From an uncultured Clostridia bacterium (GTDB lineage Bacteria; Bacillota; Clostridia; Christensenellales; UBA3700), in the NCBI GenBank assembly GCA_947246685.1, contig CAMXSN010000006.1:3898-67897 (forward strand): DNA of 64,000 bases, written 5' to 3'. The notes below the pieces were generated by a model. It saw only the letters and a program-made list of their open reading frames with translations, was not told the DNA's origin and did not search any database. Made by a program: the position numbers and the translations under genes. Each line of letters starts with the position of its first letter. Positions within the stretch are counted from its first letter, which is position 1. Below, in pieces: positions 9,769 to 62,481 of this stretch.

Positions 9769-10072
9769 GTATATCTGTCTTCCGGCGATTATAAAATATT
9801 TCCACATTACCATAACGCTCTGTCGGCCAATAATTTTCCTTAATTATGTCTTTAAGGCTCAAGTCGTTCTCACTTATGAAATCTGACGATATGTATGCAA
9901 CATCATTCTCCATTACATTTTTCAAATTATCGTATTCCATATATGTATAGTCCGGATCAATTCCCGACATCAAACAAGCCCAAATTATTCCTAAAATTAT
10001 ACCGGCTAGCGCTATCAATACTGCCAATGTAATTGCAATCCCTTTGATTGCCTTAACTGATACTCTATTCAT
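9386..10072 (-). CDS. membrane-anchored hypothetical protein, paralog A
   Basis: ATG 10072 lies 5 nt after GGGAGG; the GTG at 10078 in the track sits inside the RBS. N-terminal TM anchor AITLAVLIALAGIILGIIWACL. The C-terminal 126 aa are identical to paralog B. Confidence 0.7.
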   Translation of the reverse strand: MNRVSVKAIKGIAITLAVLIALAGIILGIIWACLMSGIDPDYTYMEYDNLKNVMENDVAYISSDFISENDLSLKDIIKENYWPTERYGNVEIFYNRRKTDIHTDFTERVEDVQYYYYTLINKNQEEREIKVCITGNSKNALVKKDKYDKKYGKYKYYSEEMKTKLNESGERIYTSYYQIKVPIGWFKSSKLEIDIIYKDIGEERSIEEIEQVMDGLFKSAVDNIELYK

Positions 10073-10093
10073 AAACACCTCCCTATATCCATA

Positions 10094-11437: not shown

Positions 11438-11491
11438 TTTACCACCCCCTTGATAATTATATAATAGCATGCTTATTTCTTTTTATCAAGT

Positions 11492-11523
11492 GTGAATTAT
11501 GTAGAATTATGTAGAATTATGTA
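11492..11523. repeat. 10-bp tandem repeat (gtRgaattat x3.2) in the peptidase promoter region
   Basis: gtgaattat gtagaattat gtagaattat gta read directly from the sequence. Confidence 0.9.
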
Positions 11524-11583
11524 CTTTTATACAATATATGCATAATTTTGGCTATTATGCAGTTTAGGTCAATATAAAATAAC

Positions 11584-11966
11584 TTATTTATAAAGCTCTA
11601 TGTTATCCACTGCGGACTTGAATAATCCGTCCATCACCTGCTCTATCTCTTCAATACTGCGCTCCTCTCCTATATCCTTATAAATTATGTCTATCTCTAA
11701 CTTGCTGCTCTTGAACCACCCGATCGGGACTTTTATCTGATAATACGACGTGTAGATTCTTTCTCCCGATTCATTCAACTTGGTCTTCATTTCCTCGCTG
11801 TAATACTTATATTTTCCGTATTTCTTGTCGTACTTATCTTTTTTTACTAAGGCATTTTTTGAGTTACCCGTTATACATACTTTTATCTCTCTTTCTTCCT
11901 GATTTTTATTTATCAAAGTATAATAATAGTACTGAACGTCTTCAACTCTCTCTGTAAAATCCGTAT
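11584..11966. repeat. 383-bp segmental duplication, copy 2 (partner 9386-9768)
   Basis: See copy 1. Confidence 0.9.
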
Positions 11967-12276
11967 CATCGTTCGTTTTGCGCCTATTAAACTCTATTCT
12001 TACATTGCCGAGCAATTCATAATCATCGCTAAATGCATCTTCCCAATAAATATCTTTAATTTCCAATTTGTTTTCATTAATAAAGTCAGACGAAATATAT
12101 GCTACGTCATTCTCCATCACTTTTTTCAAATTATCGTATTCAATGTAAGTATAATCCGGATTAATTCCCGACGTCAAACAAGCCCAAATTATTCCTAAAA
12201 TTATACCGGCTAGCGCTATCAATACTGCCAATGTAATAGCGATCCCTTTGATTGCCTTAACTGATACTCTATTCAT
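11584..12276 (-). CDS. membrane-anchored hypothetical protein, paralog B
   Basis: 230-aa ORF. The N-terminal ~45 aa and C-terminal 126 aa match paralog A. The central ~40 aa are unrelated in sequence and 2 aa longer. Confidence 0.7.
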   Translation of the reverse strand: MNRVSVKAIKGIAITLAVLIALAGIILGIIWACLTSGINPDYTYIEYDNLKKVMENDVAYISSDFINENKLEIKDIYWEDAFSDDYELLGNVRIEFNRRKTNDDTDFTERVEDVQYYYYTLINKNQEEREIKVCITGNSKNALVKKDKYDKKYGKYKYYSEEMKTKLNESGERIYTSYYQIKVPIGWFKSSKLEIDIIYKDIGEERSIEEIEQVMDGLFKSAVDNIELYK

Positions 12277-20382: not shown

Positions 20383-21537
20383 TCAATGCGTGTTGCGAAA
20401 ATTCTCGTAATCATCGAGCAACTCCGCGCTGATACTCGGCGGAATCTTGTTGAACGCTTTTTCAAACATATCCGCTCTGAGAGGGATAGGACTAGAGCTT
20501 CCGCTTTGCTGAATTTCTTCGAGAGCGCATCTGCAGGCTTCCTCCACTATTCCGCATATATCTGCGGCAGAATAATACGCCGTCGTGCGGATATTGCCCT
20601 TCTTATCTTGTTCCGCCGTGAACGTCTCGGTCATATCTACGATCTCTTCCACCGTGATATCTTCTAATTCTATACCGCTGAGTTTGCTCTCTATGATAGC
20701 TTTTTTCGCGCCGAAATCGGGAGGCGTGACGTGTATCAAATGAGAAAATCTCTTATATCTGAGATAAGCGGGATCTATCACGTCGGGACGGTTGGTCGCC
20801 GCGACCATTATTCTCTTGGAACCGTCCACGCCGAATCCGTTGATTCTCTGCAGAAGTTCGGTCGTAACGGCAGCCTTGTAATCTTTGGTATCCTGTGTAC
20901 GTTTGCTGAAAATAGATTCGCATTCGTCAACAAACAGTATCGCGCCGTCGGGACATGCGTCGATTTCTTCGAATATCTGTTTGACTGCCTGCTCGGATTC
21001 GCCGACATAGGACTTGAAGATATCGGCGGGCGTAACGATGAACAACGGTAATTTCATTGCGTTGGCGATAGCCTCGGCAAACATTGTCTTACCCGTACCG
21101 GGCGCGCCGTACATAAGCATACCCAGACCGCCTTCTATCTTGTAATATTCGAGTATCGACGGATTCTGCGCCATAAATATAAAACTTCTGACCAATGCTT
21201 TGACGTTGTCCAAACCCTTGACGTCGTCGAGAGTTGTATCGGGCACTTTGCTCTTGATGACCGAGCCGTAACCTGCCGCCGCGTCGCTGAGCTGCTTGTA
21301 AAACAACTTGTATTTCTCGCTCAGCAATCTGTCTGTGCTTCTCACGGAAAGCGTGCGCGCAATTTGCGCCGCCTGAGAATATTTGGCGCGCAATACGTTG
21401 CGTTCCTCGTCGGACAGATCTTTTTTATCCTTCCTGCCGTTTAGGACGGAACGTATCTCGTCTGTGACTTTGCGGAGCGAGTTTTCCAACTCTTCCACGC
21501 CGCTGTCTTCGGTATTTCTTTTTTTATCCGCTGCCAT
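20383..21537 (-). CDS. classical-clade AAA+ ATPase with helical N-domain (Vps4/katanin-like single cassette)
   Basis: Walker A GAPGTGKT, pore loop KSYVGES, Walker B ILFVDECE and sensor-1 VAATNRPD. SRH IDPAYLRYKRFSHLIHVTPPD has no Pro-Gly and so resembles the Vps4 RRRFE type. The ~120-aa charged helical N-terminus precedes the LDDVKGLDNVK linker. RBS GAGGAG. Confidence 0.85.
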   Translation of the reverse strand: MAADKKRNTEDSGVEELENSLRKVTDEIRSVLNGRKDKKDLSDEERNVLRAKYSQAAQIARTLSVRSTDRLLSEKYKLFYKQLSDAAAGYGSVIKSKVPDTTLDDVKGLDNVKALVRSFIFMAQNPSILEYYKIEGGLGMLMYGAPGTGKTMFAEAIANAMKLPLFIVTPADIFKSYVGESEQAVKQIFEEIDACPDGAILFVDECESIFSKRTQDTKDYKAAVTTELLQRINGFGVDGSKRIMVAATNRPDVIDPAYLRYKRFSHLIHVTPPDFGAKKAIIESKLSGIELEDITVEEIVDMTETFTAEQDKKGNIRTTAYYSAADICGIVEEACRCALEEIQQSGSSSPIPLRADMFEKAFNKIPPSISAELLDDYENFRNTH

Positions 21538-21547
21538 TGTCGTCTCC

Positions 21548-22267
21548 TCAGATTATGTCGTCTATATTGATATCCCCGTCGGAACCCTTGTCCGCGCCCG
21601 TATCGGGAGCCGCGGAAGGAGCGGCGGACGAATCTTCTGCAGTTTCCCCGTTCGCCTCTGCGCGGTATTTCGCAAGCTGCTTGGAAGCCTCGTTCTGATA
21701 GCCTGCCATGACGTCGTTGCTTTTCCCGTCCGATTTTGCCATTGACTTTTTGAGCTTTTTATCGAATCCGCTCATTGCCACCAACATAGCGTTGGCAATA
21801 TTGCCGTATCCGTTGACCATATCCATAATGGCTTTCATACGGTTACTGTTCATCTTGACGAATTTTTTGATCTTGCGTCTCTGTTTCATCCTGCCTCTTG
21901 CAGAATACTGCTTGTAATTGTCAAGGCTCATCATCTCGTCGATGAATTTGAACGTATCGTCCATTATGTTGATTGTCTGCGACAGCACCTGCATTGCCTC
22001 TTTCATGGAAAACATCATTCCCACGACGTTCTGCAAGCTGAAAGTAACTGTGTAAAACATCGTCAGCACTCTGGTGTTGAAATGATCGGCGCCGTATTGA
22101 CGCTCGCTCTCAACGACTTTGCGCGCCAGATTTTCCACGGATTTCTCCAATTCGGATTTCTTACCCTCTAAAATCTTACCGTCGAGTTTTCTGAGATTTT
22201 CTTTTTGCATTTCGCTGTATGGATTGGAGAGCCTTTCTCCTCTCTCTCTGTTTCTTTCTCTTGCCAT
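21548..22267 (-). CDS. 239-aa helical protein with basic N-terminus and acidic disordered C-tail ending DGDINIDDII (ESCRT-III/PspA-like architecture, unproven)
   Basis: RBS GGGAGAA. N-terminus MARERNRERGER, long predicted helices, then Ala/Pro/Asp-rich tail SSAAPSAAPDTGADKGSDGDINIDDII. No sequence motif I can assign to a family. Confidence 0.7.
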   Translation of the reverse strand: MARERNRERGERLSNPYSEMQKENLRKLDGKILEGKKSELEKSVENLARKVVESERQYGADHFNTRVLTMFYTVTFSLQNVVGMMFSMKEAMQVLSQTINIMDDTFKFIDEMMSLDNYKQYSARGRMKQRRKIKKFVKMNSNRMKAIMDMVNGYGNIANAMLVAMSGFDKKLKKSMAKSDGKSNDVMAGYQNEASKQLAKYRAEANGETAEDSSAAPSAAPDTGADKGSDGDINIDDII

Positions 22268-22282
22268 AATTTTTTCTCCCGA

Positions 22283-23797
22283 TTAAAACTGATTGTTGAT
22301 GATGTCATTTATCTGTATGTCGCCGTCCGCCTCTTCTAAATCTTCAGACTGCTCTTGCTTATCCGCCGCGTCTTCTTTGGGGGCGGAAGTCTTTCTTGCA
22401 AATTTACGGCGTCTTTCTTCCATTCTCTTTCTCATCTCTTCTTTTTCTTTTGCTCTGTCCTCGCTCTGCTTGTTTGCAGTTACGTATGTTTGCTCTTTCT
22501 CCATAAGTTTGTTGATAGTTGCAAACCGCTCGTCGGTCATAGCCATGTGTTTTGTCTGCAGAGCAACGTTTTCCATAATATTGTCATAATAACTTATAGC
22601 GAGCGTAATATCCGACTCGGACGCGCCGTAACTCAATATATCAAGAAACTGCCTGAAATCTATATATGCGAACATAGAATAAAACAAGTTGGGTTCTATC
22701 TGCTGATACATAGTGTAGATATGTTGCAATCTCTTGAATTTGGAGAGCAGTCTGCGCATAGCGAGCATATTATTGTTCATCATATTGATACTAGCCCTAT
22801 ATTGCTCTCTTTCCATCTCTCTGATTTCCATATCCTGTTCGAGCATGGTGATTTGAGTATCCGCTTCTTCTTCCATTATTTCGCCTTCGTCGAGAGCCGC
22901 TATTACGTCGGATATATTCTTCTGAATTTCCGCGATATCGGCGTTGATCTGTTTGACTTTCTCGTATGCGTCGTTCTGTACGCTGAACTGCTCTTCAAAT
23001 GATGCCAATCTTGCAAAGAACGCGTCGCCTTTTTCTTTGACGCTCGCAATCTTTGAGAATCCCGAGAATACGTCTTCCTGATATTTGACGATATCTTTAT
23101 CCTTTGCCTGATTTCTCTTATTGACCGCCTTGGTCAGTTCGCACCATTTGTCAGCCTCGTCCAGAGCCTGTCTGAGATGGTCGTTGACGGCGTCGAATAT
23201 CATATTCCTGCCTACGTAATCTCTCCACGCGAACAGACCGTAGGAGCTGTCGCCGAGCAAATTTGCGGCGGCGTCCGCAGCGTCCAACGACGAATTGTCA
23301 AACACGCCGTCAACTTTCTCTCTCAATTCTTTGAGCATATCTTTGGACGCGATAAGAATGCCTTTCTTGTATTCGCTCTTTTCCTCGTAAATCACGTTGT
23401 CTATTCCCATCATAGAATCGTCGATATATTTCAATACTTCTTTCTTGATGTCTGCCATATTCTTTTCTCCTTTTCCCAATTTTATCTTTTTGAAAATCTG
23501 TTCTTTTTTTTCTCTGTATCCGTCAAGTTTCAGCGCCGCGTTGTATTTTGAGAGCAGCGTAGCCATTTCCGTCAGCTCGAAAATAGCGTTTTTGAGATTG
23601 CCGTCGAATCCCTTGTTGATCCCTTCTCGCAAAAGCGACTCGATATCTTCTCTTATTTCGTCGGAAAAATCTTGACAGCGATTGCTGTCGTAACCGTTGT
23701 ATTCTATATCCTTAAACTTTCTTGCGTAACTTATTTTGTTGTCTTCGAGTATACCGACAAGCTTATCCAGCCTTATCAATTCTTCTCCTCCTCGCAT
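22283..23797 (-). CDS. 504-aa coiled-coil protein with acidic C-tail ending DGDIQINDIINNQF
   Basis: All-helical, charge-rich sequence. The likely true start is TTG 23779, preceded by GAGGAGGAG and overlapping the upstream TGA as TTGA. The ATG at 23797 is the track start. Confidence 0.7.
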   Translation of the reverse strand: MRGGEELIRLDKLVGILEDNKISYARKFKDIEYNGYDSNRCQDFSDEIREDIESLLREGINKGFDGNLKNAIFELTEMATLLSKYNAALKLDGYREKKEQIFKKIKLGKGEKNMADIKKEVLKYIDDSMMGIDNVIYEEKSEYKKGILIASKDMLKELREKVDGVFDNSSLDAADAAANLLGDSSYGLFAWRDYVGRNMIFDAVNDHLRQALDEADKWCELTKAVNKRNQAKDKDIVKYQEDVFSGFSKIASVKEKGDAFFARLASFEEQFSVQNDAYEKVKQINADIAEIQKNISDVIAALDEGEIMEEEADTQITMLEQDMEIREMEREQYRASINMMNNNMLAMRRLLSKFKRLQHIYTMYQQIEPNLFYSMFAYIDFRQFLDILSYGASESDITLAISYYDNIMENVALQTKHMAMTDERFATINKLMEKEQTYVTANKQSEDRAKEKEEMRKRMEERRRKFARKTSAPKEDAADKQEQSEDLEEADGDIQINDIINNQF

Positions 23798-24924
23798 ACG
23801 TCGGAGACGAATTTATCCGTCTCTTTTTTGGACGTTCTGCCTTTCTCCGAATATTTATAAAAATCGTCGTCGTAAAAAACGCACGAATTGTATCTGCCCG
23901 CTTTTATAAGCCGCTTAATATCCGCGTTGCCGTTGTCTTCCAAGCATTTGGCTATGCCGGCAATGGTTCTTTTTTTGAGATATTTATGTCCGCCGCGCGC
24001 ATTTACGAAACACATATAAACTCCGCTGTCGGGACAGTCGCTCACGTACTGCGCCACGGCGTTGGAATTCTTAAGCTCGTAAAATTTGCCGTCGATCTCT
24101 TTGTCGTCGTATGCTTTTGCCATTTTAAGACGCAGATCTCTGCCTATGCTTTCAAGCACGGAAAAGCCGTTGTCCTCCTCGGAAAACAGACGCACGCACT
24201 CTTCTTTTGAAAGTTTGAAAATGCCGAAAACAGGAGCGCGCTCCTCGTCCGTACAACTGCGCAATGTGGCAAAAGCCACGCTTGCCGCGTCCTCGTCCTC
24301 CGCCCGTTCGCCGTATAACAGATCAAATTTATCGTAATCTCCTCCGAGATCCGTTATCTTCTCTGCCAAAGCCGCGCGCAGTTCGTCAAGACTCTCATAT
24401 CCGTCGAATTGTCTCTTGACAGCGATCTCGCGCGGAACGTTTTTTAACATATCTATCAAATATCCTGCGCACTGCAGTTTGATATCCGTCAGTTCGTCGA
24501 CGTAACGGTCGTCTCCTTCGGGAGTGTGCACGCCTCTATGAACGTTGAAAAGCACGGCTTTGTAATAAAAATACGCCACGCGCCATCTCTCGGCGCTGCC
24601 CGTATTGAAATCCACGTAGCCCCTGTCATAGTAATACCCCATACGCATAAGCGCTGAAGGATGAAACATAAACGCCGCTTCATAACACAGATTGACCGCT
24701 TTATCGAGATATTTGAATCTCGTCCTCTTGTCTTCGTTGGAAGACGTGAGCCATTTGAAATAATATTCCTCGGAGCGAACGAACAGCTCTCTGTTGAGCG
24801 CATTGATCTCCAGCTCCGTGTCCGTATCGGGGAATACGTCCTTTTTGCAATGCGGACAGCACCACCTGCCGTCATACAGCTCGAGCGGTCTGTCTATATC
24901 TTGATTGCAATTTCCGCATTTCAT
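23776..24924 (-). CDS. 382-aa protein with N-terminal Zn-ribbon, one Sel1/TPR-like repeat and an unknown C-terminal domain
   Basis: RBS AAGGAG. MKCGNCNQ...CCPHCKK is a four-Cys ribbon. AAFMFHPSALMRMGYYYDRGYVDFNTGSAERWRVAYFYYKAV fits the Sel1 repeat pattern. Confidence 0.65.
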   Translation of the reverse strand: MKCGNCNQDIDRPLELYDGRWCCPHCKKDVFPDTDTELEINALNRELFVRSEEYYFKWLTSSNEDKRTRFKYLDKAVNLCYEAAFMFHPSALMRMGYYYDRGYVDFNTGSAERWRVAYFYYKAVLFNVHRGVHTPEGDDRYVDELTDIKLQCAGYLIDMLKNVPREIAVKRQFDGYESLDELRAALAEKITDLGGDYDKFDLLYGERAEDEDAASVAFATLRSCTDEERAPVFGIFKLSKEECVRLFSEEDNGFSVLESIGRDLRLKMAKAYDDKEIDGKFYELKNSNAVAQYVSDCPDSGVYMCFVNARGGHKYLKKRTIAGIAKCLEDNGNADIKRLIKAGRYNSCVFYDDDFYKYSEKGRTSKKETDKFVSDVCEEEKN

Positions 24925-24938
24925 ACTGTTATCTCCTT

Positions 24939-27900
24939 TTAAGACGCCTTTCGCTCGATCTTGAAATCAATAAGCGTGTTTGTGAATTCATAATTAACCG
25001 ACGATACCGATGCCGAGACCGAATAATTGCCTACCGCGGTCGGCGCGCTCGCAAGCAGCCTGCCCTTGGAATCGTAATACGCATATCCGTTTAACTTGAT
25101 ATCCGAAGAATACTCTTTGCCGTCCTTGACTATCGTAGGAATGCCGGACGCGGTGTTCCACTGCAACGCGACGCTCTTTTTATTGATGATAAAATCGCAC
25201 GATTCATATTTAACGTCATAATTATTTATTACGCCGCTCTCTGGCAAGCTCAATGTGAGAGTGTATTTGCCGGCGTTTTTAGCGCTTATCGCACTGCCGC
25301 CGTATATAGGCGTCCCGAAATCTTCTTTCTTATCCTTTGTTGCAAGACCGCTCAACGTAAAGCCGAAATTGCCGCCGGTCTTGCCGTCGTAAGTCTTTGC
25401 CGACGCAACGGCTTTCGCCACAAGAGTACGTTTGGTTATCTCAAAATCCTTGGAGTCGTCGCCGATAAGTTGATAATTATCCGCATAAACGCCGCCCAAA
25501 GCGACCTGCGCCGTATACTTGCCGACGTTGAGTTGGGCGGAAGTATACTTCAGCGAAGAGATCATTGCCGTTTGCTGATTTGCAACCGCGTTTGTTATAG
25601 AGGACACTCTTGCGTTGTGATTCTGACCGTCGTAAACAAACTTGGAGTATTTCTCGTCCCATACAACTCGTACTTGGCGTTTAACTATCGAATAGGACGT
25701 TTCAACGGGCGCGTCAAGTCTGTAATTGCCATCAATAGGAAGATCCGCGCCGACGGTATAGCCGTCTCCGACGTTGACGTTGTTTTCATACCCGTAATAA
25801 TCTATCGGCACGGGCTTATCTCTGTCCAGCGCGCCTATTACCATCAAGTCGGGGTGCTGCGCGACGCCGGCGTAAACCAATTGAACGTTCTCCGCCCATT
25901 TTGCCGTCACGGTAGCCCTTTCGATGACGTAATCGCAGTTGCGATTGACGATCGTATAATTGCCGTTTGCGGTGCTGACTCTAGCGACGTAAGCGCCTGC
26001 GTCAATACCGGCGCCCGTCACGTCGGTTTGAATTTGACCGTCTTTTGCTATACCTGTTACGGTAGCGTTAGGCGCCTTGTAACTTCCGTCGTATACGAAT
26101 TGAGTATTAGACCACACCGCCTCAACTTCTATGGGAAGTATCTCGTAGGCAAAACTTCCCCCCGAGCCTATTTTGTAACAGTCTGCTCCGACCGTAAGTT
26201 CTATATTCGCCGTGTATCTGCCGGCATCGGAATTGATATGATTGGATATAGCGTATTCGATACCGTCGCCTTCAATCAACTGCGACGTATCGTAATCTAC
26301 GTAAACTTCTTTATTCTCGCCGTCGTATACGTCCTGATCAAAATCCGTCCAGACAAAATCCAAAGCCTTTTTATCAACCGACACGTCTATGACGAAAGTC
26401 TCTTGCGAACTGAGAGAGGTTTCTTCGGAAGTCGCTACGACTATGACGGAAAACGCTCCGCTCATGCTCGGAAGAACTCTGTCGTATATCATTTGAGCGC
26501 CGCTCTGCATAAACGCGTCTTTGCAATACCATGAATACGACAAATCATATCCCGACTTAGGCGCCTTTGCCGCCGCCGACAGAATCAACGTATCGCCGTA
26601 AACGTACTTCTCTGCGTTGGGCGTAATTTTGCCGTCATAAGGTTTTTTCAGCGTCCATTCCGGTTCGACTGCCGTCGCGTTGTAATATCCGTTCGCATTG
26701 CGTCTGAGGTAATCGGCGAGACTTGAAAATTCGTTGACGCCGCATTTCCATTTGATATCGAATCCATCTCTCGACAAATCTTTGAGGAGCTCGTCCGCGC
26801 GGCTGAGAGCCGTCAATCTGTAATTGCGTATACTGCCGCCTGCCTCTATCGTCTTGATCGAATCGTCAAAACTGAACTTGGTATCGTTGCCGTCGCCTAT
26901 CTCCACGGCGAAAACTCTCTCGAAATTAACTTGGGCTTTAACGACGTTGTTAACTATGCTTACGCCTTGCAGATTTCCTTGAGACGTGACTATTTCTTTG
27001 AGCATATAGCCGTTGTTTTGATAATTCCAATACAAATCTTCGTCGTCGGACTTATCAGAATATTTTACGTAATCGACTTTGTCGCCGCAGAACGACAAAT
27101 CAAACTTATTGCCTTTTTTGCCTATCCACGTGGGAATATAGCTGTTGTCGGTCAATATCAAATCGTCTGCGTTGTAGGCAAACGTAACGTACGCTTCGTC
27201 GTCGGCAAGCCCCGTAGGATAAACGTTGTTTGCCAATACCACGCTCTGTCTTTCCGAATATAATTCCTGTCTGTAACTGTCGATGAGCTTTTTGTTTACG
27301 CCCAATTTCAACGTGTCGTTCAACTCGCCTAAATAATATTTCTCGTCGTACAGACGCATCCTTTTTTCTCCGACTATTTCGACGCTGGCTATGGATGCGT
27401 CGGCAAACAGAGCGTAACTGACAGCCGTTACGTCCTTGCCGTTGAAAGTTAGAGGTACGCGCACCTTATCGCTTCTGCCCTCGAGCACTCCGTCGGCAAA
27501 ATACGAATCGCTGGCTTGGTCGTATTTGAAAGCCAAACTCCTGTATTCGTCTACGTAACCCTGTCCGAGAAAACCGTAATCCATTATATATACCGAATAC
27601 GCTCCCGATATCGCCACCGTTAACGCGCTCATGGCTATAACGGTCGCTTTGACCCACGGTTTTTTCTTGAGTATCGGATAAAGCGCCGCTATCGTAACGG
27701 CAACAAAACTGACCGCATGCGCAACTGCGAACAAAGCCGTCGCCGCGCCTGTCGAATAGGTCAGCTCCCCGCCGCTCATAACTCCCAACGTAGAACACGC
27801 GAATATAAACGTCAAAGCAAGATAAACTATCCACACCGTGAGCGAATATCTAAAACGGAAATTGGTAAACACTATGCCCACGATAAACAAAGCGTCAAAG

Positions 27901-28097
27901 ATCAGATTGAACACTGGCAGCACGATAAAACGCGCGTCGAAGCCCGATACAGCACACACTATCAGCAACACGAGGTCGCACACCGCCGCGGTAATGGAAG
28001 CGATGAGCAAAAATAGCTTGCTGCCGCCGAACCGCTTGCGGTTGGCGGAAGAATAATCTATATTTTCGCTGCCTGAATATAAGCCGTTTCTATTCAT
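24939..28097 (-). CDS. 1052-aa polytopic membrane protein with a large extracytoplasmic region ending in six MBG/YDG-type repeats
   Basis: RBS AAGGAGG and an ATGA overlap with the upstream gene. Five hydrophobic helices lie in aa ~29-170. The last 477 aa form six ~75-85-aa repeats, each with xVxW...(V/T)YDG...G(K/R)Y...NY...(F/Y)xIxK. Confidence 0.75.
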   Translation of the reverse strand: MNRNGLYSGSENIDYSSANRKRFGGSKLFLLIASITAAVCDLVLLIVCAVSGFDARFIVLPVFNLIFDALFIVGIVFTNFRFRYSLTVWIVYLALTFIFACSTLGVMSGGELTYSTGAATALFAVAHAVSFVAVTIAALYPILKKKPWVKATVIAMSALTVAISGAYSVYIMDYGFLGQGYVDEYRSLAFKYDQASDSYFADGVLEGRSDKVRVPLTFNGKDVTAVSYALFADASIASVEIVGEKRMRLYDEKYYLGELNDTLKLGVNKKLIDSYRQELYSERQSVVLANNVYPTGLADDEAYVTFAYNADDLILTDNSYIPTWIGKKGNKFDLSFCGDKVDYVKYSDKSDDEDLYWNYQNNGYMLKEIVTSQGNLQGVSIVNNVVKAQVNFERVFAVEIGDGNDTKFSFDDSIKTIEAGGSIRNYRLTALSRADELLKDLSRDGFDIKWKCGVNEFSSLADYLRRNANGYYNATAVEPEWTLKKPYDGKITPNAEKYVYGDTLILSAAAKAPKSGYDLSYSWYCKDAFMQSGAQMIYDRVLPSMSGAFSVIVVATSEETSLSSQETFVIDVSVDKKALDFVWTDFDQDVYDGENKEVYVDYDTSQLIEGDGIEYAISNHINSDAGRYTANIELTVGADCYKIGSGGSFAYEILPIEVEAVWSNTQFVYDGSYKAPNATVTGIAKDGQIQTDVTGAGIDAGAYVARVSTANGNYTIVNRNCDYVIERATVTAKWAENVQLVYAGVAQHPDLMVIGALDRDKPVPIDYYGYENNVNVGDGYTVGADLPIDGNYRLDAPVETSYSIVKRQVRVVWDEKYSKFVYDGQNHNARVSSITNAVANQQTAMISSLKYTSAQLNVGKYTAQVALGGVYADNYQLIGDDSKDFEITKRTLVAKAVASAKTYDGKTGGNFGFTLSGLATKDKKEDFGTPIYGGSAISAKNAGKYTLTLSLPESGVINNYDVKYESCDFIINKKSVALQWNTASGIPTIVKDGKEYSSDIKLNGYAYYDSKGRLLASAPTAVGNYSVSASVSSVNYEFTNTLIDFKIERKAS

Positions 28098-29752
28098 TTC
28101 GCTGCCTCCTTGTCGGAATTGCCCTTAGGCGCGCTGAGATAACCGCTGCTCTTGGCGGTATCTTTATTAAATATAAGCACAGATTCGTCGATCATAAACA
28201 TAATGCAATCTTCGTCTTCCTTGCAATATTTCTTTTTGTTGAGACTGCCTATTCTCTTGACCAAAGACAGCATTCCCGAATATTTGCGATATAGCTTATT
28301 ACCCTGTTTGTATTCCGCGTCGTCTATCGCGTCTATGCCCAATTTGGTTATTTTGCAGAAATCGCAAACGTAATCGGTCGAATTAGTTTCGGAGTAAAAC
28401 GATCTTCCGCAACATGAACAACGCGCAATTTTATCTTTAGGCACCAACGTCATTCTGTCTCTGACAAAGGCAAGATTCTTAGTATATCTAGCTATTCCGT
28501 CTTCGCAGACGTATACGACCTCGGGATGCGGACAGCGTTTGCATTTTCTCACTCCGCCGTCAAGCACGGCAGTATCGTCCTCGCAAACGTATTTGACGCA
28601 TCTGCCGGCAAGTCTCGCGTTCTCCGAGCAACTAATCCTGAGCAAGTGCGAAGTAAACGTTCCGCCGGATTTTATCTGTCTTATTATCTCTTCGCTAAGA
28701 CCGAGCCCTTGATGGGCAGGATTTATCAACGCTGTTTTCTCTACTCCGTCAAATACGTATTTGATCTTATTGAACTCGATAAGAGTAGATTTTTTGCGGC
28801 AGCTGTTGCAATAAAGACTCAACCTGCCTCCTATGCCCAATATCGCTTTGAGCGCGACCTTGCCGTCTAGTCTTACGTCGTAGTTATCTTTTCTCCACTG
28901 AAAATGCAGGACGTTGAGAAGAGACAGATTTAGGCACGTCAAATCAACGTTGTCGTTGGGTCCCTTCTCCACCATAATTCCCACGGCGTTCTCGTCTCTG
29001 CCGTCGGCTAACACGACGTAATCCGACAAATCCGCTCCTTGAGAATTACCGTCGGGATATACGAGTTTGTCCAAAGCATTGACGACGGTATCGGTAAGTT
29101 CCGCGCTGTTTTGCATAAGTTCATCTTCTTCCCTTTCCGAATCGAACGTGGAAAGATACGAGTTGATGACTTCGGCTTCTTCCTTGCCGTAAGGAAGTAT
29201 TTTTTTACCTACTTTTCTAAAAAACACTTTGCCTAGCACCGGCACCGCTTCGCCCGTTCCGTCGGTGATCTCCAACCTCAACGAGGCTCCGTAAACGTCT
29301 TCCAAACTCTCCGACTCGTCGCCGCGTCTAATATCGAATACGTAATTATCAAAGAAGCTCGATAGCACGTTGTTTATCAGCGCACAATGACTTTCTATCA
29401 ACTCGTTGGATATTACGTGCCTTCTGGGGCTGTATTCGACGATAGAATAATTGCGGTGAAAATGTTCCTTGACCGACTCGACGAACATAAGCCATTCGGC
29501 GGTGTCGTTTTTGACGCTCTCGCCTCTGAACATTCCAAACCATGACGCCCCGTTGTCGCCCATTACCGCATTGAACGAACCGTCGTCGCGCGCAGCCGCG
29601 CCGCGAGCCAATATAAATTCATGCGAGGGAGTAACTATCCTGTCTGCGTCCGCCGACAAAACCGATCCTTCTTTTATGCAATTTTCGCGGTACAATTTCA
29701 CCACGCTGTCAAACGTCTTGCCGTATTCGCTTCCAATATAAATCTTAGCCAT
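28094..29752 (-). CDS. 552-aa hypothetical protein with several CxxC Zn-ribbon-like pairs in the C-terminal half
   Basis: RBS GGAGGCGGT. CNSCRKK, CKRCPHPE and CSCCGRSF...CDFC. No other recognisable motif. Confidence 0.65.
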   Translation of the reverse strand: MAKIYIGSEYGKTFDSVVKLYRENCIKEGSVLSADADRIVTPSHEFILARGAAARDDGSFNAVMGDNGASWFGMFRGESVKNDTAEWLMFVESVKEHFHRNYSIVEYSPRRHVISNELIESHCALINNVLSSFFDNYVFDIRRGDESESLEDVYGASLRLEITDGTGEAVPVLGKVFFRKVGKKILPYGKEEAEVINSYLSTFDSEREEDELMQNSAELTDTVVNALDKLVYPDGNSQGADLSDYVVLADGRDENAVGIMVEKGPNDNVDLTCLNLSLLNVLHFQWRKDNYDVRLDGKVALKAILGIGGRLSLYCNSCRKKSTLIEFNKIKYVFDGVEKTALINPAHQGLGLSEEIIRQIKSGGTFTSHLLRISCSENARLAGRCVKYVCEDDTAVLDGGVRKCKRCPHPEVVYVCEDGIARYTKNLAFVRDRMTLVPKDKIARCSCCGRSFYSETNSTDYVCDFCKITKLGIDAIDDAEYKQGNKLYRKYSGMLSLVKRIGSLNKKKYCKEDEDCIMFMIDESVLIFNKDTAKSSGYLSAPKGNSDKEAAK

Positions 29753-29763
29753 ACCGCCTCCGC

Positions 29764-32571
29764 TCAGTTATCCATGGACAGAATTTCTTTTATATCCGCC
29801 ACTTTGTCAGATTCTTTCCTTAGATTGTTGCAGAAAGACTCGCCGTTGTCGTGTTTGAAATCCCACGACGCCTTGATATACGCCGCAAACGTCCTTGCAA
29901 TCACGGGATATAGATAACCTCTTTCGTGATTTTGTTCGCACTTGGGACAACGCGCAATCCATTTCTCGTCAAACGATATTACGTGAGGTCTGGGAGAACA
30001 CTGCGAATAATCGCACGATCCGCACAGTTCAACGCTGGCTTTACCTACGCCGTACCTGCACTTCTGCGGACATGACGAACGGCTGGAACAGCTTGCGCAC
30101 AGACTCTTGAGTTCAACTGCGGAAATATTGCGATTGAGCGCATAAGCGTTGAGCACGCTGCACTTACCTTTGAGCTCGCTCTTGAATCTCTGACAGTGCA
30201 ACATCGAGCATATCTTGGAACAGTAATAATCTCTGTCGCCTTTATCTCCGCTGCTGCACAGCGATCCTCTGTCCGTATCCGTCTTGGATATACACGTGTA
30301 TCCGCCGTCGCCCACGCTTCTGCCGAATACCGAACCGCACGTGCCGCACTTGAATTCGTACACGTTTATCTCTTCCATAACCGTGCCTCGGGGATCATCC
30401 TGAATACACTGCCTTTTTGCTATACAGAAAAGATTGTTTTTCTTCTTGCGCGCATCGTATTCTTCTTTTGTATAAAGCGCCACTTTGCCGCAAGCGGGAC
30501 ATCTGAGCGCAACCATACGCTCGTTGTTACTGCCCGCGATAATCGTCGCGTCGCCGCTGTTGCTGGAAAGCAATCCTATACTGTTGAAGTACGCAAGAGC
30601 AAAACCTTCGAGCTTATTCATATCTGCAAACGAATATATCTTGACGTCGCTAGACTGTCCGAGACGGAATATTCTGCCTATTCTCTGATCCATAGACAAC
30701 GGATCGGGCGTGACCTGGAAGTTGATGATGATTCTGCTGTCCTGCAAGTTTACGCCCTCGGTAAACGACGGGTCGGTAACGAGTAACACCGCGTCTTCTT
30801 TGGATGTAAATTCGTCTATAACCTGTCTTTTGTTATCGTCTCTGCCTATTAATATCCTTGATGAAAATTCGCCGTCCGCGGCAAGTTCCGCACCGACTTT
30901 TTCCCATTGACGGTACCCTTTGCTTGTCTTGGGCAAGTCGTAATCGAAAAATACCAACGCTCTCTCGCCCGGATGTTCGCGCAGAACGGATTTCATCTCC
31001 TCGAATTTATACGCAAACGTATCTTTATCAGCCGCGGTGAAGATAAATTTGTTGTCGCATTCTCCCGCGGCTTTTCTTGAGAATTGCTCCCAATAAAATT
31101 TAAGCGAATTTTTCTTTTCAAAAACTTTTTCGTCCCCGAAAGATTTTAGTCCGCCCAAAATGTTGGGCACCAATATCTCAGCATATTTCTCCTGAGCGTC
31201 GCCGTGCAAGGAAATTTCCTGCGCATAGTCTTTCAGCGAATATGCTCTGCCGTCGACGTTGAGCGCTCGATTCCCGTTGATTACGTCCAGACTTGCTTCC
31301 ATGTCGCAACCGTCTCCGTATTTGAACCTTATTATCTTAGGAGCGTTTTCTTTGACAGGGAAGAAATATCTGTTGAAAACGAATCTGGTCTTGGTAAGTT
31401 CGTTGGGCTGACGGATCATTATGGTGCGCAACACGCCGTTGTGATAAGCGCTCGCTACTCTTTTGAGCACCTCGGAGCGTATTGGACCGCTGTCTTTAAG
31501 AAACTCTTCTCTTAGCAATTGTTTTTCGCCCTGAGTATAAGATTGAAATTTCTCGTATTCTCCCTTTGCTTTCAAAAAAGCTTCAAACTGAGCTGAGTAA
31601 TTGTTGTCTACTTCAAACTTCTTAACCGCGGTGATAAACTCTGCCACGGTATTCGCGCCTCTGCACACGTTCTGCTTGTAATAGAGTTTCTCTTTTCTGT
31701 ATTCGTCAGTGCGCTCTTTATCCTCTTTTATATCGAAATCGTCGGGATTGCCGCCCTTACATCTGATAAAATACCACAGTCTGAACATCTTTTCCAGATT
31801 GCCGGAATGAGGCGTAGCGGAAAGAAGCACGCAGTAAGTGCTGTTGGCTTTTTTCTTTGTCTGCATAAGCAAAGACAGTAGTTTCATAGCCTTTGCATAT
31901 CTGCCTTCTTCCGCGCACAGATGATGAGCCTCGTCGACGACAACGACGTCGAATAACACGTTTTTAATCGCGCTTTCTCGCCAGTTGACGAAATCCTCCG
32001 CCTTGACGATAAACGGCTTTGTCGGTCTGACGGTCGCTCCGTCCGACAAAGTCTCGCACTCGCCGAACTCCGCGTCGGCGACTCCGACAAGCACGCCTTT
32101 GCCCAGTCCGAATTTATTTTCAAGCACGTCTATCCAGCTGTCGTAAACCTGCGACGGCACGACCAACAACAGCGATTTCATCTTACCTCTGACGGCAAGC
32201 TCGCTCAGCACTGCGCACGCCTCAAAAGTTTTGCCGCTGCCCACAACGTCCGCGAGCAGACCGAAGCCGCGCAGCTCCTTGAGAAAATGCGTCGCCGCAA
32301 GTTGCTGATGTCTCAATATTACCTGATTGCTGTTGACGCTCCTATGCACATGCGATTTGGTTATTCCGTAATCTCCGCCGTCGGATTCGTATACTTCCGG
32401 CGCTATTTTCAACGCGGCGAAATCGTCGTATCTGTCCAGTTCTTCGGCGCAGTGGGTAAGCTCGGCTATCCGCGCGTCGAAGGGGCGTATCTCACCTGCA
32501 ATCTTCGACCTCTGAATATCCCTGTCAAAAGCTCCGTCCGTACATTTAAGAGTAAATCTTTTCTTTTTCAT
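29764..32571 (-). CDS. SNF2-family (RapA/HepA-like) helicase/translocase with ~200-aa Cys-rich C-terminal module
   Basis: Start ATG 32571, 5 nt after GGAGGGG; the track start 32589 is a TTG. Motifs LLADVVGSGKTFEA (I), VVVDEAHH (II), LLSATPHSG (III), TEGVNLQ and QRIGRIFRLGQ (VI). The tail holds about 21 Cys, including CPAC, CGTC, CASC, CGSC and CPKC. Confidence 0.85.
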   Translation of the reverse strand: MKKKRFTLKCTDGAFDRDIQRSKIAGEIRPFDARIAELTHCAEELDRYDDFAALKIAPEVYESDGGDYGITKSHVHRSVNSNQVILRHQQLAATHFLKELRGFGLLADVVGSGKTFEACAVLSELAVRGKMKSLLLVVPSQVYDSWIDVLENKFGLGKGVLVGVADAEFGECETLSDGATVRPTKPFIVKAEDFVNWRESAIKNVLFDVVVVDEAHHLCAEEGRYAKAMKLLSLLMQTKKKANSTYCVLLSATPHSGNLEKMFRLWYFIRCKGGNPDDFDIKEDKERTDEYRKEKLYYKQNVCRGANTVAEFITAVKKFEVDNNYSAQFEAFLKAKGEYEKFQSYTQGEKQLLREEFLKDSGPIRSEVLKRVASAYHNGVLRTIMIRQPNELTKTRFVFNRYFFPVKENAPKIIRFKYGDGCDMEASLDVINGNRALNVDGRAYSLKDYAQEISLHGDAQEKYAEILVPNILGGLKSFGDEKVFEKKNSLKFYWEQFSRKAAGECDNKFIFTAADKDTFAYKFEEMKSVLREHPGERALVFFDYDLPKTSKGYRQWEKVGAELAADGEFSSRILIGRDDNKRQVIDEFTSKEDAVLLVTDPSFTEGVNLQDSRIIINFQVTPDPLSMDQRIGRIFRLGQSSDVKIYSFADMNKLEGFALAYFNSIGLLSSNSGDATIIAGSNNERMVALRCPACGKVALYTKEEYDARKKKNNLFCIAKRQCIQDDPRGTVMEEINVYEFKCGTCGSVFGRSVGDGGYTCISKTDTDRGSLCSSGDKGDRDYYCSKICSMLHCQRFKSELKGKCSVLNAYALNRNISAVELKSLCASCSSRSSCPQKCRYGVGKASVELCGSCDYSQCSPRPHVISFDEKWIARCPKCEQNHERGYLYPVIARTFAAYIKASWDFKHDNGESFCNNLRKESDKVADIKEILSMDN

Positions 32572-32585
32572 TATCCCCTCCGCCG

Positions 32586-34538
32586 TCAATCGGCTCCTTC
32601 CACGTCGAATTCCTCGACGCCTTGGAATTGAAGAACTATGTCTTTGTATCTGGCAAACTTAACGTTTGTCGGGTCGTCGGCTTTTCTTACGGCTATGGTG
32701 TCGTAAGCTCCGTTCTTGGATACGTTGTTGCGTATGAAAGGCTGCGCTCTGCCGTCTCCGTCGATCTTAACTCCCTCAAGGAAGTATAACACGCCTTTTA
32801 TCTGCACCGGTATGGGCGATTTTTTGCCTTCTTTGCAATAATAAAACAGTATCTTGCCTTTGCTCTTACCGCCCGACACCACTCGCAGACCTATCTTCGT
32901 CTGCATCTTCACGCGCTGTTCGGAGTCAGGTTCGCCTATCACGTATACTCCCGACGATTCCGTCGTAGAGAAAATCTCCTCATTGTCTACCGACCCCGAC
33001 CATCTGTCCATATATTTGAGGCTGGATTCGGTATAATACGTTCCTCCGTCGGGAGGAAGTATCTGACCTCTTTTGAGGAAAATGTCCAGTATCTTATAGT
33101 ATTTATCTCCGCGCTTGCGATATTGCCAAGTACCGTAAGACAATGCTACCGCCGTCTTGATCTCGTAATTATTGAGCGCAACGATAGCGCCGCCTACCGC
33201 GGGCGCAAACAAAGAATCTTCGTATGAAAGTATCCTGAATCCGTCGTCTCTGTTCTCGTAATCGTCAAACGTGACGACGTCGACGTTCAATCCCGCTTTG
33301 CGTAGTTTGGAGCGCAGATAACCTATCAGCCCGTAGGTCTCCGTAACTCCTCCCGACAAGAGAAGTTTGTCCACGTCTTTATTGATACTTCTGTTCAACT
33401 CCTCGATAATATAATCCGCTATCTTAGCCGCCACGCCGCAATCGCCGTCGATACCCACCGCCTTGCAAAAGTCATCTCTCGTCAACATTCTCTGCACCGT
33501 CACGTCTCTATAGAGCGATATAGGCGCTCCGTCTGGAAACACGTTGTCGTAAGTTGCGTCGGGAAGAGACAGCGCCGTCTTGACCTTTTTGATCTCGGTC
33601 ATAAACAAAAACTGTTTAGAATGCAATCCCCGCTCGGCGATATATCCGTCTTCTCCCGACGGCGGCGCGCCCGGAGTCTCTCTCGCCCCGATGCTGTCTT
33701 CTATATAATCTCTTAACGCAATGTCAAAATCGTTGCCGCCTATCTCCATAGGCTCGTTGTGACCGTCAACGCCGTCCACAAGCACGCTCTTGACCTTTCC
33801 GCCCGAAAGACTGAGTTTTGCAACGGAAATATCCTCTTCGCCCATATCGACGATAATAACGCCCTCTCCGCCGTCCAAAATACCTCTGTGAAATGCAAAA
33901 AGTCCCAGCGCTCTCGTAGATGACATTACCTTCTTAACATTAGAGCCGACCGAACGCTCTACCAAACGCGTCAACTCCTCTATGTATTCCGCGCCCGCTT
34001 TGGCAGGATAAATCAGCGAATAATCGACGCTGTCGAATGCTAGATTTCTCTGCGCTTGCAATCTCTCTATCGCAGGCAAAACAGTCTTAGAAAATAGATA
34101 ATCAAAAAACTCTTCGCACACCTGCATCGGCGTCCTGTCTGCGCAAAAAGTCATGTCGAGATCTTTGGCAAGCATCAGATTTTCGGAAATCTTGCGTTTT
34201 GTCGGAAAATAAAATTTGGGGAAATCTCTGCCTTCTCGATAACATACGCGATTGCTATCGCATACGGCTTTATCCGATCTTTTCAGAAGCAAAGACAGCA
34301 GCGTTTTGATCTTGACGACAGTAATAAAAGGTCTGTCGGTGCCTTTATACGCTTCGTCTCCGAACAGCCATCTGCCGTTGTCCTCGTCGTAATACGCTAT
34401 CGCCGACACGACCGCGCTGCCCGTGACTTCCCTGGGCGCCAACTTTCCGTATACCGCCTTATTGGATTCTTTATAGGCAAAAGCAACCTTTACTTTGTCG
34501 CTGCCGACGTCGATTGCAACCTCTAAATTACCTTGCAT
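32586..34538 (-). CDS. divergent Hsp70-like (actin-fold) ATPase with beta-rich C-terminal domain, no lid
   Basis: RBS AAAGGAG. Motifs AIDVGSDKVKVAF (phosphate-1), IIVDMGEEDISV (phosphate-2), EIGGNDFD, LLLSGGVTETYGL and PAVGGAIVA. The C-terminal ~190 aa resemble an SBD-beta (TAVALSYGTW...ILPP...). No EEVD. Confidence 0.8.
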   Translation of the reverse strand: MQGNLEVAIDVGSDKVKVAFAYKESNKAVYGKLAPREVTGSAVVSAIAYYDEDNGRWLFGDEAYKGTDRPFITVVKIKTLLSLLLKRSDKAVCDSNRVCYREGRDFPKFYFPTKRKISENLMLAKDLDMTFCADRTPMQVCEEFFDYLFSKTVLPAIERLQAQRNLAFDSVDYSLIYPAKAGAEYIEELTRLVERSVGSNVKKVMSSTRALGLFAFHRGILDGGEGVIIVDMGEEDISVAKLSLSGGKVKSVLVDGVDGHNEPMEIGGNDFDIALRDYIEDSIGARETPGAPPSGEDGYIAERGLHSKQFLFMTEIKKVKTALSLPDATYDNVFPDGAPISLYRDVTVQRMLTRDDFCKAVGIDGDCGVAAKIADYIIEELNRSINKDVDKLLLSGGVTETYGLIGYLRSKLRKAGLNVDVVTFDDYENRDDGFRILSYEDSLFAPAVGGAIVALNNYEIKTAVALSYGTWQYRKRGDKYYKILDIFLKRGQILPPDGGTYYTESSLKYMDRWSGSVDNEEIFSTTESSGVYVIGEPDSEQRVKMQTKIGLRVVSGGKSKGKILFYYCKEGKKSPIPVQIKGVLYFLEGVKIDGDGRAQPFIRNNVSKNGAYDTIAVRKADDPTNVKFARYKDIVLQFQGVEEFDVEGAD

Positions 34539-34600: not shown

Positions 34601-34629
34601 AGTATAGCACACGCTCATAAGGTTTTCAA
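34601..34629 (-). promoter_or_regulatory. strong sigma-A-type promoter of the nine-gene operon
   Basis: Minus strand reads TTGAAA - 17 nt - TATACT with a TG at the extended -10 position (GTGTGCTATACT). It lies ~60 nt upstream of the Hsp70-like ATG. Confidence 0.65.
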
Positions 34630-34730
34630 TACTATTTATTATATTATTTATACAAAGGCGTTGTAGATTTTACAAAAATATTTTACAATTTTGGCATAGA
34701 CTATTCTAATATTATCTAAGAAATTAAGGA

Positions 34731-34759
34731 AAAATTTAACCGTCGAAAAAACGACGGTT
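34731..34759 (-). terminator. rho-independent terminator insulating the operon from the upstream gene
   Basis: aaccgtcg-aaaaaa-cgacggtt hairpin, followed on the minus strand by AAATTTTT. Confidence 0.65.
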
Positions 34760-61018: not shown

Positions 61019-61092
61019 TGGAGCAGGTGACGGGAATCGGACCCGCGCTGGCGGCTTGGGAAGCCGCTGTTCTGCCATTGAACTACACCTGC
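61019..61092 (-). tRNA. tRNA-Gly (anticodon CCC), CCA encoded
   Basis: Hand-folded 74-nt cloverleaf. The 7-bp acceptor GCAGGTG/CACCTGC is followed by the D arm GTTC-AATGGCA-GAAC. The anticodon arm is GCGGC-TTCCCAA-GCCGC and the T arm is GCGGG-TCCGATT-CCCGT. The 3' end is the discriminator T plus CCA. Confidence 0.9.
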
Positions 61093-62088: not shown

Positions 62089-62261
62089 TTTCTCCCCCTG
62101 ACAGTATCGATTTTTGAGCTATGCGTCTTGATTATTCGCAAATATTTTCAACCGATACCCTATATTAATATATTATCACTTTATATCGGATAAAATCAAT
62201 ACTTTTATGATTTTAACAAGCTTTTTTGGGCAGAATAATGTCTCATACTACTAAAAAATAA

Positions 62262-62290
62262 TTGCATTAGGCAAAAATATAGTATATAAT
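62262..62290 (+). promoter_or_regulatory. sigma-A promoter of the retron transcript
   Basis: TTGCAT - 17 nt - TATAAT. The predicted +1 falls at ~62297-62298, exactly where the a1 repeat begins. Confidence 0.6.
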
Positions 62291-62297
62291 AATAAAC

Positions 62298-62454: not shown

Positions 62455-62481
62455 CATAATAAATAATTTAAGGATTAATAA

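Follow-up and report, generated by a model that had tools for sequence, protein, structure and literature searches.

An extremely diverged, lid-less Hsp70-like protein shares a conserved gene module with an SNF2-family ATPase in gut Clostridia

The stretch of DNA analyzed here (the window, 64,000 nucleotides from an uncultured Clostridia bacterium) encodes, at 32586..34538 on the minus strand, a 650-residue Hsp70-like protein in which a nucleotide-binding domain (NBD) is joined by a hydrophobic linker to what is probably an elaborated substrate-binding domain of the beta type (SBD-beta), with no lid. Judged by its predicted fold, the protein truly belongs to the Hsp70 structural family, within which it is extremely diverged. 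It founds a small, narrow family that is seen only in Christensenellales-type gut Clostridia, and each member whose genomic context was examined sits in the same tightly packed, vertically inherited module, which consists of a six-gene core and two interchangeable 3' ends. The role that we favor, that of a dedicated nucleotide-gated clamp in a fast-evolving, conflict-type system, falls somewhat short of an even chance in our estimation.

An Hsp70-like protein with an altered nucleotide site

Kinship with Hsp70 is faint in sequence comparisons. The Pfam model HSP70 (PF00012) scores 14.9 bits against the protein (E = 0.008), below its cutoff of 20.6, and neither NCBIfam, PADLOC and PHROGs nor a phmmer search of the PDB returns a match. 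The family profile reaches DnaK NBDs in the PDB at E ~0.1 only, and hhalign assigns a probability of 8–11% to Hsp70s. At low stringency, the hhalign alignment to the DnaK NBD is collinear over 361 columns (21% identity, E = 0.003), and E. coli DnaK, HscA, HscC, and YegD align around the phosphate-2 region only. The predicted fold, however, is that of an Hsp70. An AlphaFold2 model built from a 43-sequence alignment has a predicted local distance difference test (pLDDT) score of 86.9 and a predicted template modeling (pTM) score of 0.84, and its top 50 Foldseek matches in the PDB are all two-domain Hsp70-family constructs (E 2e-20 to 5e-17, 12–15% identity), with Sse1/Hsp110, DnaK, BiP, Hsc70, Ssb, Ssz1, and mortalin among them. 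NBD-only Hsp70 structures are numerous in the PDB, and as none appears in these top 50, the C-terminal domain is taken to add to the score.

The NBD comprises residues 1–458 (33165..34538, minus strand) and is supported by Foldseek, the collinear hhalign alignment, and conservation within the family. When conservation is scored on the alignment of 43 homologs, the five actin/Hsp70 nucleotide-binding motifs are all present, in order, and no other part of the protein is as conserved. These are the phosphate-1 motif GLDLGSD, together with VVKIK; the phosphate-2 motif DMGEEDISV, which is 80–99% conserved; IGGNDxD, the counterpart of LGGEDFD in DnaK; the adenosine motif SGGxxETYGL; and the connect-2 motif APAVGGAIVA. 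An earlier reading of the window, made from its letters alone (the sequence-only reading), had quoted actin/Hsp70-fold motifs in this order, and every one of them is found and conserved across the homologs. With the ASKHA motifs in order and the Foldseek matches to Hsp70, Hsp110, and BiP, the domain has the NBD fold of an Hsp70.

The altered phosphate-2 loop that the same reading had noticed is a property of the whole family. It reads D231-M-G-E-E-D-I-S238 (33825..33848, minus strand) where DnaK has D-L-G-G-G-T-F-D-I-S, and both HMMER and hhalign alignments to the DnaK segment DLGGGTFDISI show a two-residue deletion, replacement of GG by EE, and loss of T199. A further change affects the DnaK segment NEPTAAA, which holds the catalytic E171 and reads SSTKAL here, with Ser in place of E171. 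The equivalents of D8, K70, and D194 are kept as D10, K78, and D231, a mapping taken from a low-confidence alignment, so that the catalytic set D8/K70/E171/D194/T199 (DnaK numbering) is incomplete by the equivalents of E171 and T199. The replacement loop GEED is nearly invariant in the family, and the pattern of conservation shows strong purifying selection on the motifs of the nucleotide site. Three further loops, FPKFYFP (residues 106–112), RETxGxP (286–292), and ERGLHSKQ (302–309), are invariant and specific to the family and are candidate interaction surfaces; the blocks of the AlphaFold2 model that hold FPKFYFP and RETxGxP have the lowest confidence of the model.

The linker (IKTAVALSYGTW), a 195-residue beta-rich C-terminal domain, and the stop codon occupy 32586..33164 (minus strand). 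To this domain the sequence-only reading had attached the label SBD-beta-like, and the likeness is real but remote. When residues 456–650 are modeled alone (AlphaFold2, pLDDT 95.1) and compared with the PDB by Foldseek, ~40 of the top 50 matches are Hsp70 SBDs, from DnaK, BiP, HSP70-F, Hsp70-x, Kar2, HscA, and Ssz1; these matches are weak, with E values of 0.03–0.5 (best E 0.028, none at E <= 1e-3) and TM scores of 0.25–0.39. The domain is also larger than its DnaK counterpart, at ~195 residues and ~13 strands vs ~115 residues and eight strands. Its start keeps DnaK landmarks that can be read by eye (LSYGTW for LSLGIE, RGxxLP for RNTxIP, and EEIFST for QVFST). We conclude from the models that the domain is probably a heavily elaborated SBD-beta derivative. 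The lid is indeed missing, as had been proposed: DSSP, run on both AlphaFold2 models, finds residues 460–650 to be beta-rich with two short helices only, and the protein ends at residue 650.

The C-terminal end reads VEEFDVEGAD, exactly as quoted before, and the acidic tail to which it belongs, G(V/M)(D/E)EFDVEG(G/A)D (window 32586–32620, minus strand), has been conserved among the closer half of the family. There is a loose resemblance to eukaryotic Hsp70s, whose EEVD tail is a docking site for TPR co-chaperones; in the module, a TPR or Sel1 partner is not confirmed.

Position of the gene and the conserved module

The Hsp70-like gene begins with an ATG that is preceded by an AAGGAG ribosome-binding site. 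Two promoter-like sigma-70 sites (TCTACA-18-TATAAT, and TTGAAA-17-TATACT with TG; consensus matches only) lie ~60–130 nucleotides upstream of the start, at 34601..34667 (minus strand), and a terminator-like hairpin at 34738..34759 (minus strand) ends the preceding gene (160 residues, not conserved at related loci), so that the operon has its 5' boundary there. On the strength of these sites and the hairpin, the gene is placed first in its operon, in line with the sequence-only reading. An Rfam search finds no regulatory RNA in the 250-nucleotide leader. At its other end, the stop codon (32588–32586) is followed by 14 nucleotides (cggcggaggggata) and then by the SNF2 start codon, an ATG at 32571, which is preceded by a GGAGG site; the spacing is that given by the earlier reading.

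The same reading had called the protein an orphan with no J-domain or GrpE gene in its operon. Pfam searches of the nine operon proteins return no DnaJ or GrpE match, the cytoplasmic proteins of the module contain no HPD motif, and a canonical dnaK is absent from the window, so the absence of co-chaperones stands; the cell's general DnaJ or GrpE may still serve the Hsp70-like protein. In any other sense the protein is no orphan, as it has hundreds of orthologs.

The family is nevertheless small, as only 224 clusters are found at E <= 1e-3 in an exhaustive family-profile search of 1.84 billion cluster representatives. A word-indexed search returns 169 relatives, none with a precomputed Pfam domain and, with the exception of one UniRef label reading "Hsp70 family", all unnamed or "hypothetical". 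The named relatives all come from metagenome-assembled genomes of Clostridia (Borkfalkia, Coproplasma, and "Christensenellaceae"). Falling below the Pfam cutoff and within a 224-cluster family of its own, the protein lies outside DnaK, HscA, HscC, and YegD; placement within HscC or YegD is the outcome that the sequence-only reading had held up against its own proposal.

Genomic context was examined at 17 distinct loci, with Hsp70-like identity down to 26%. Some were reached through Hsp70-like orthologs at 40%, 35%, 27%, and 26% identity, 10 were anchored on p552, a Zn-ribbon protein of the module (in a scan that used a three-sequence p552 alignment and narrow patterns), and four were anchored on SNF2 or p552 homologs. 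The core order is the same in 17/17: the Hsp70-like protein, SNF2 (930–1145 residues across loci), p552 (540–607), a giant protein with five transmembrane (TM) helices and MBG repeats (960–2273), p382 (~360–424), and p504 (~415–544). Linkage to SNF2 and the downstream genes, which had been suggested as a check, is thus found at each locus examined, down to the most distant. Searches in the reverse direction agree, as the 44 relatives of p552 and the 120 best-ranked relatives of SNF2 all belong to the module type, and NCBI locus tags put p552 homologs two genes from Hsp70-like homologs. Compared pairwise over 14 loci, divergence in the Hsp70-like protein follows divergence in SNF2 (correlation r = 0.95) and in p552 (r = 0.90). 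Such matched divergence is expected of co-inherited partners, and shared phylogeny also contributes to it. A full-text literature search yields no description of an Hsp70-like/SNF2/MBG module, which agrees with the earlier remark that the pairing is not known from characterized systems, and the module matches no system in the databases and literature searched; at that level it has no known counterpart.

In the window the module runs along the minus strand with junctions between consecutive genes that range from a 4-nucleotide overlap to 15 nucleotides, apart from a nominal 22-nucleotide overlap between p382 and p504. The SNF2-family ATPase (29764..32571, minus strand) has 935 residues from the ATG at 32571 and intact GSGKT, DEAH, SATP, and QRIGRIFRLGQ motifs. 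Its C-terminal region of ~250 residues is rich in Cys; the copy in the window has six CxxC/Cx4C motifs there, and the cysteines are largely conserved. The core member p552 (28094..29752, minus strand; 552 residues) contains several Zn ribbons and 11 invariant Cys, and matches no known family beyond Zn-ribbon-sized hits. A common origin of the Cys-rich SNF2 tail and the Cys-rich half of p552 was rejected, as hhalign gives a probability of 2.8% and one match of Zn-ribbon size.

The giant membrane protein, also of the core (24939..28097, minus strand; 1052 residues), starts within a 4-nucleotide overlap with the p552 stop and has five N-terminal TM helices (residues 29–169), followed by a large predicted extracellular region with ~5 YDG/MBG-type repeats; in its orthologs, MBG repeats score above Pfam cutoffs. 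It is followed by the core members p382 (23776..24924, minus strand; 382 residues), in which a Zn ribbon (CxxC...CPxC) lies at the N-terminus and VFYDDD is conserved at the C-terminus, and p504 (22283..23797, minus strand; 504 residues), a coiled-coil type protein with a low-complexity linker that ends in DGDIQINDII. By eye, p382 has a Sel1-like pattern (HPxAxxxMGYYYExGY); this assignment was dropped, since 10 orthologs give no Pfam Sel1 match and only weak Zn-ribbon matches.

The 3' end of the module comes in two forms. Variant A, found in the window, in loci L009–L011, L014, L017, L023, L025, and L026, and probably in L015, consists of p239 and an AAA ATPase. The former (21548..22267, minus strand) is a helical protein of 239 residues with a Ser/acidic linker and the tail DGDINIDDII, and the latter (20383..21537, minus strand) is a classical single-domain AAA ATPase of 384 residues with a helical N-domain of ~95 residues; it is the most conserved protein of the module, and its core comes nearest to VAT/p97 D2. 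In variant B, their place is taken by an HExxH protein and a helicase (L012:13319-17234, L013:18103-21604, L018:17383-21599, and L024:17897-21677). The HExxH protein has 630–661 residues, a conserved C-terminal CHECFHAFQH, a zincin-like character, and no Pfam match. In L024 the helicase has 1500 residues with DUF4011, AAA_11, AAA_12, and MTES_1575 (restriction endonuclease-like) domains, and the PADLOC defense candidate PDC-S37 matches the variant-B helicase over its N-terminal half (E 3e-40).

The C-terminal tails of p504 (22283–22330, minus strand) and p239 (21548–21590, minus strand) share their last ~10 residues and nothing else, for which reason paralogy of the two proteins was rejected. 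The tails, compared between the window and its equivalents in L009, L010, L011, and L014, co-vary between loci (GIDDIIF with GNIDDITFM in L011; GIDGIISDN with GIDDIVS in L014), and loci without the AAA ATPase carry unrelated ...DDDK tails in place of the shared one. This co-variation and replacement suggest a common receptor for both tails, for which the helical N-domain of the AAA ATPase is the probable candidate. An ESCRT-III/Vps4 reading of p239 and the AAA ATPase, which arose from the helical core, flexible linker, and C-terminal tail of p239 and from a weak Vps4_C match, was also considered: profile searches of the PDB and Pfam with p239 and the AAA N-domain find no Snf7, PspA, or MIT, the AAA core is nearest to VAT/p97 D2, and the Vps4_C match of the AAA ATPase (E 0.001) is below cutoff. 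It is kept as an architectural analogy only.

Close relatives carry the module at the same chromosomal site. In L009 and L011, the closest genomes, the downstream flanking MFS gene shares 87–90% identity with that of the window where the module proteins share 32–77%. Taken over L009–L011, the module proteins range from 32–35% (giant) through p239 (34–76%), p504 (35–68%), p552 (46–55%), p382 (49–64%), the Hsp70-like protein (55–62%), and SNF2 (65–72%) to 73–80% (AAA ATPase). The module is thus fixed in place in these relatives but evolves much faster than its flank. The giant is by far the fastest-evolving member, and its divergence and length variation are compatible with diversifying selection on the region predicted to be surface-exposed. 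Elsewhere the flanks differ and are ordinary genes, among them TrkAH, ABC transporters, GH3, rpsF-ssb-rpsR, and ctsR-mcsAB-clpC. In L025 (15740–18202), the class III heat-shock operon ctsR-mcsA-mcsB-clpC comes directly after the module, a single case that may be coincidence. A mobile-element origin was rejected, given no matches in phage, plasmid, or IMG/VR collections and no integrase or transposase in the window.

Two other parts of the window differ in composition. Positions 62001–64000 have a GC content of 27%, vs 41–52% over most of the rest, and may be a foreign or integrated element; the stretch comes shortly after a tRNA-Gly(CCC) gene at 61019–61092 and contains a 297-residue open reading frame (62482–63375, plus strand) with no Pfam match. 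A second low-GC stretch (35%) at 10001–12000 holds a 458-residue open reading frame (10094–11470, minus strand), again with no Pfam match.

Comparison with known systems

DnaK, BiP, and Hsc70 resemble the protein in its probable NBD and SBD-beta organization with a hydrophobic linker, the five ASKHA motifs, the GG(E/N)DxD motif, and the equivalents of K70 and D8. Compared with DnaK, however, it is only ~13–14% identical, its NBD is 70 residues larger and carries the invariant family-specific loops, its phosphate-2 loop is two residues shorter with EE for GG, E171 is Ser, and it has neither a lid nor a DnaJ/GrpE partner. The best single Foldseek match is to Hsp110/Sse1 (3c7n_A, E 2.4e-20). Like the probable SBD-beta here, that of Hsp110 is enlarged by insertions, and Hsp110 functions mainly through ATP binding and less through hydrolysis; it also keeps a long helical lid and serves as a nucleotide-exchange factor for Hsp70, whereas the protein described here is lid-less and its module encodes no partner Hsp70. 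HscC and YegD are likewise specialized, non-canonical Hsp70s, and in HscC the lid is shortened and a dedicated J-protein, DjlC, is encoded nearby. Both are readily recognized by Hsp70 sequence models, which the present family is not; YegD, at 450 residues, is too short for an SBD, and the genomic contexts of the two are unrelated to the module. A tblastn search of the window with E. coli HscC and YegD gives chance-level matches (E 0.5–1), and HscA reaches E 6e-4 over 96 residues only. In E. coli K-12, the hscC neighborhood (L021, 679000–686000) encodes the Sel1-repeat protein YbeT in addition to the J-protein DjlC.

Among conflict systems, one parallel is CnuD of Type III CoCoNuT, which also has an Hsp70-like NBD/SBD with degenerate catalytic motifs in a multi-ATPase system and is tied to an McrB-like GTPase, McrC (DUF2357), and HEAT repeats (PMC11090510). 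By that description the module is set apart from CnuD, because none of its proteins is McrB or McrC or has HEAT repeats. Hsp70-family proteins have also been recruited as regulatory components of GTPase-centered conflict systems, in DO-GTPase/tubulin/Hsp70 and GAP1-N2/Hsp70/GrpE/DnaJ-FNIII arrangements (PMC7159879); the module is not one of these, as it lacks a GTPase, tubulin, GrpE, and DnaJ and has SNF2 and the TM/MBG giant instead. DISARM DrmD, BREX BrxH, Dpd DpdE, and RapA provide the closest profiles and structures to the module SNF2, which nonetheless scores far below the family cutoffs (DrmD, NF038317, 106.7 bits vs 610; DpdE, 94 vs 500; RapA, 84 vs 576). Unlike DISARM, BREX, and Dpd, the module has no DrmA, DrmB (DUF1998), methyltransferase, PglX, or Dpd genes, and the Cys-rich C-terminal region of SNF2 is specific to it. 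IetAS was also rejected: the AAA ATPase scores 98 bits against the NF042959 cutoff of 510, its PADLOC IetA match (E 1.5e-31) reflects the generic AAA core, and the module has no protease gene, whereas IetA is paired with the subtilase IetS. We conclude that the protein and its module are not HscC, YegD, CnuD, DISARM, BREX, Dpd, or IetAS.

Possible roles of the Hsp70-like protein

Hsp70s rank with the best understood of molecular machines, and their reliance on a lid, J-proteins, and exchange factors is well established. The sequence-only reading had proposed a specialized, probably client-dedicated relative of Hsp70; this reading is supported, and dedication to a client, though inferred, fits the strict co-inheritance, the missing lid and co-chaperones, and the invariant surface loops. 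As we envisage it, the protein would be no general chaperone but a dedicated, J-protein-independent, nucleotide-gated clamp, whose derived SBD and invariant exposed loops would hold or release a partner from the module. The most likely partner would be the co-translated pair of SNF2 and the Zn-ribbon protein p552, in view of their tight coupling and matched divergence, and the clamp would control whether the SNF2 motor assembles or is active. The module itself would be a chromosomally fixed, fast-evolving, conflict-type (defense-like) system, with the surface MBG protein as anchor or sensor and the swappable 3' ends as effector or recycling units. What points to conflict is the fast evolution, the putatively diversifying surface component, the DrmD/BrxH/DpdE-like SNF2, and the swappable 3' units, one of which is a helicase-nuclease of a defense-candidate class.

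Several observations weigh against this proposal. With E171 replaced by Ser, T199 deleted, and two phosphate-loop Gly replaced by Glu, ATP hydrolysis, and even ATP binding, may differ from that of Hsp70 or be lost. Homology of the SBD rests on the weak structural scores given above, and local hhalign comparisons with the SBDs of DnaK, HscA, and HscC find no significant sequence homology. The defense part of the proposal in turn is at odds with the setting, as the neighbors of the module are housekeeping genes (sugar metabolism, rpsF-ssb-rpsR, ctsR-clpC), the examined loci have neither an integrase nor a known defense gene close by, and the family is not found in phage, plasmid, or IMG/VR collections. 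PADLOC models fit the core proteins through generic SNF2 or AAA similarity only, and a surface protein with 800–2000 extracellular residues would be unusual for a defense system.

Part of this evidence favors a different role, in which the protein would be a dedicated biogenesis chaperone that keeps the MBG giant (1000–2300 residues) or the coiled-coil proteins competent for export or assembly, within a lineage-specific envelope or adhesin machine. The giant accompanies the Hsp70-like gene in 17/17 loci, the context is housekeeping and in one locus adjoins ctsR-mcsAB-clpC, inheritance is vertical at a fixed site in close relatives, and the combination of an AAA ATPase and helical substrates that carry tails suggests cycles of assembly and disassembly. 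This account leaves the catalytically intact SNF2 motor of the DNA/RNA-polymerase type, the Zn-ribbon proteins, and the variant-B helicase-nuclease unexplained, and two genes separate the Hsp70-like gene from the giant while its tightest coupling is to SNF2. We regard it as unlikely on balance; given the housekeeping context, the absence from mobile elements, and the adhesin-like ectodomain, an envelope or adhesin biogenesis machine is still a serious rival. The altered catalytic site could also mean that the protein is a non-hydrolyzing pseudo-chaperone akin to CnuD, acting as a scaffold or as a nucleic-acid- or ribosome-binding targeting subunit for SNF2 and the helicase. Loss of the E171 and T199 equivalents and replacement of the glycine-rich phosphate-2 loop fit such a role, RNA binding has been predicted for similarly degenerate Hsp70-like NBD/SBD units, and CoCoNuT super-operons list helicase components, a loose parallel to variant B (PMC11090510). 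The five nucleotide-site motifs, GEED loop included, are however 80–99% conserved, which suggests a working, if altered, site; with only 224 clusters in the family search and no McrB/McrC gene in the examined loci, we consider the pseudo-chaperone quite improbable.

Adjacency to SNF2 invites a comparison with eukaryotes, where the pairing of Arps with SNF2 proteins is established: the protein might be an actin/Arp-like regulatory subunit whose NBD binds the SNF2 N-terminus and tunes translocation by the motor, an analog of the Arp/actin-HSA arrangement of INO80 and SWI/SNF. The two genes are adjacent in each locus with apparent translational coupling, the proteins diverge in step (r = 0.95), and the fold is ASKHA. 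That fold matches Hsp70, though, and not actin or Arp, no long HSA-like helix is visible by eye in the 90-residue SNF2 N-terminus, and strict co-occurrence with p552, the giant, and the rest would go unexplained, all of which makes an Arp-like subunit very unlikely. An ordinary housekeeping Hsp70 paralog of the HscC or YegD kind, with its neighbors present by coincidence, would account for the Hsp70-type architecture. It is contradicted by the linkage, the same neighbors being present in 17/17 loci, and by a narrow, distinct family below the Pfam cutoff, and we give it next to no credence.

The clamp proposal can be extended to the module as a whole. In this extension, which we put forward as doubtful, the eight genes would encode an unrecognized, envelope-anchored, multi-ATPase machine, in which the rapidly diversifying MBG protein would report an outside event, such as phage or cell contact, to a cytoplasmic SNF2 motor gated by the lid-less, J-independent Hsp70 derivative, and interchangeable effector or recycling units (the AAA ATPase with tail-bearing helical proteins, or a peptidase-like protein with a helicase-nuclease) would complete the response. 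If that were true, it would be the first case in bacteria of an Hsp70-family protein built into an SNF2 translocase as its regulatory subunit.

Whatever its role, the family appears to keep the NBD-linker-SBD skeleton with a rewritten phosphate loop, no lid, and no dedicated co-chaperone, and is co-inherited with SNF2 throughout a lineage of abundant gut Clostridia. Should the protein prove to be a clamp in an SNF2 complex, it would represent a new repurposing of the Hsp70 allosteric cycle and a counterpart in bacteria to the actin-fold subunits found in SNF2 remodelers of eukaryotes. Christensenellales are linked to host health and little studied genetically. As no family is recognizable for five of its eight proteins, the module offers a compact, testable entry into the biology of this order.

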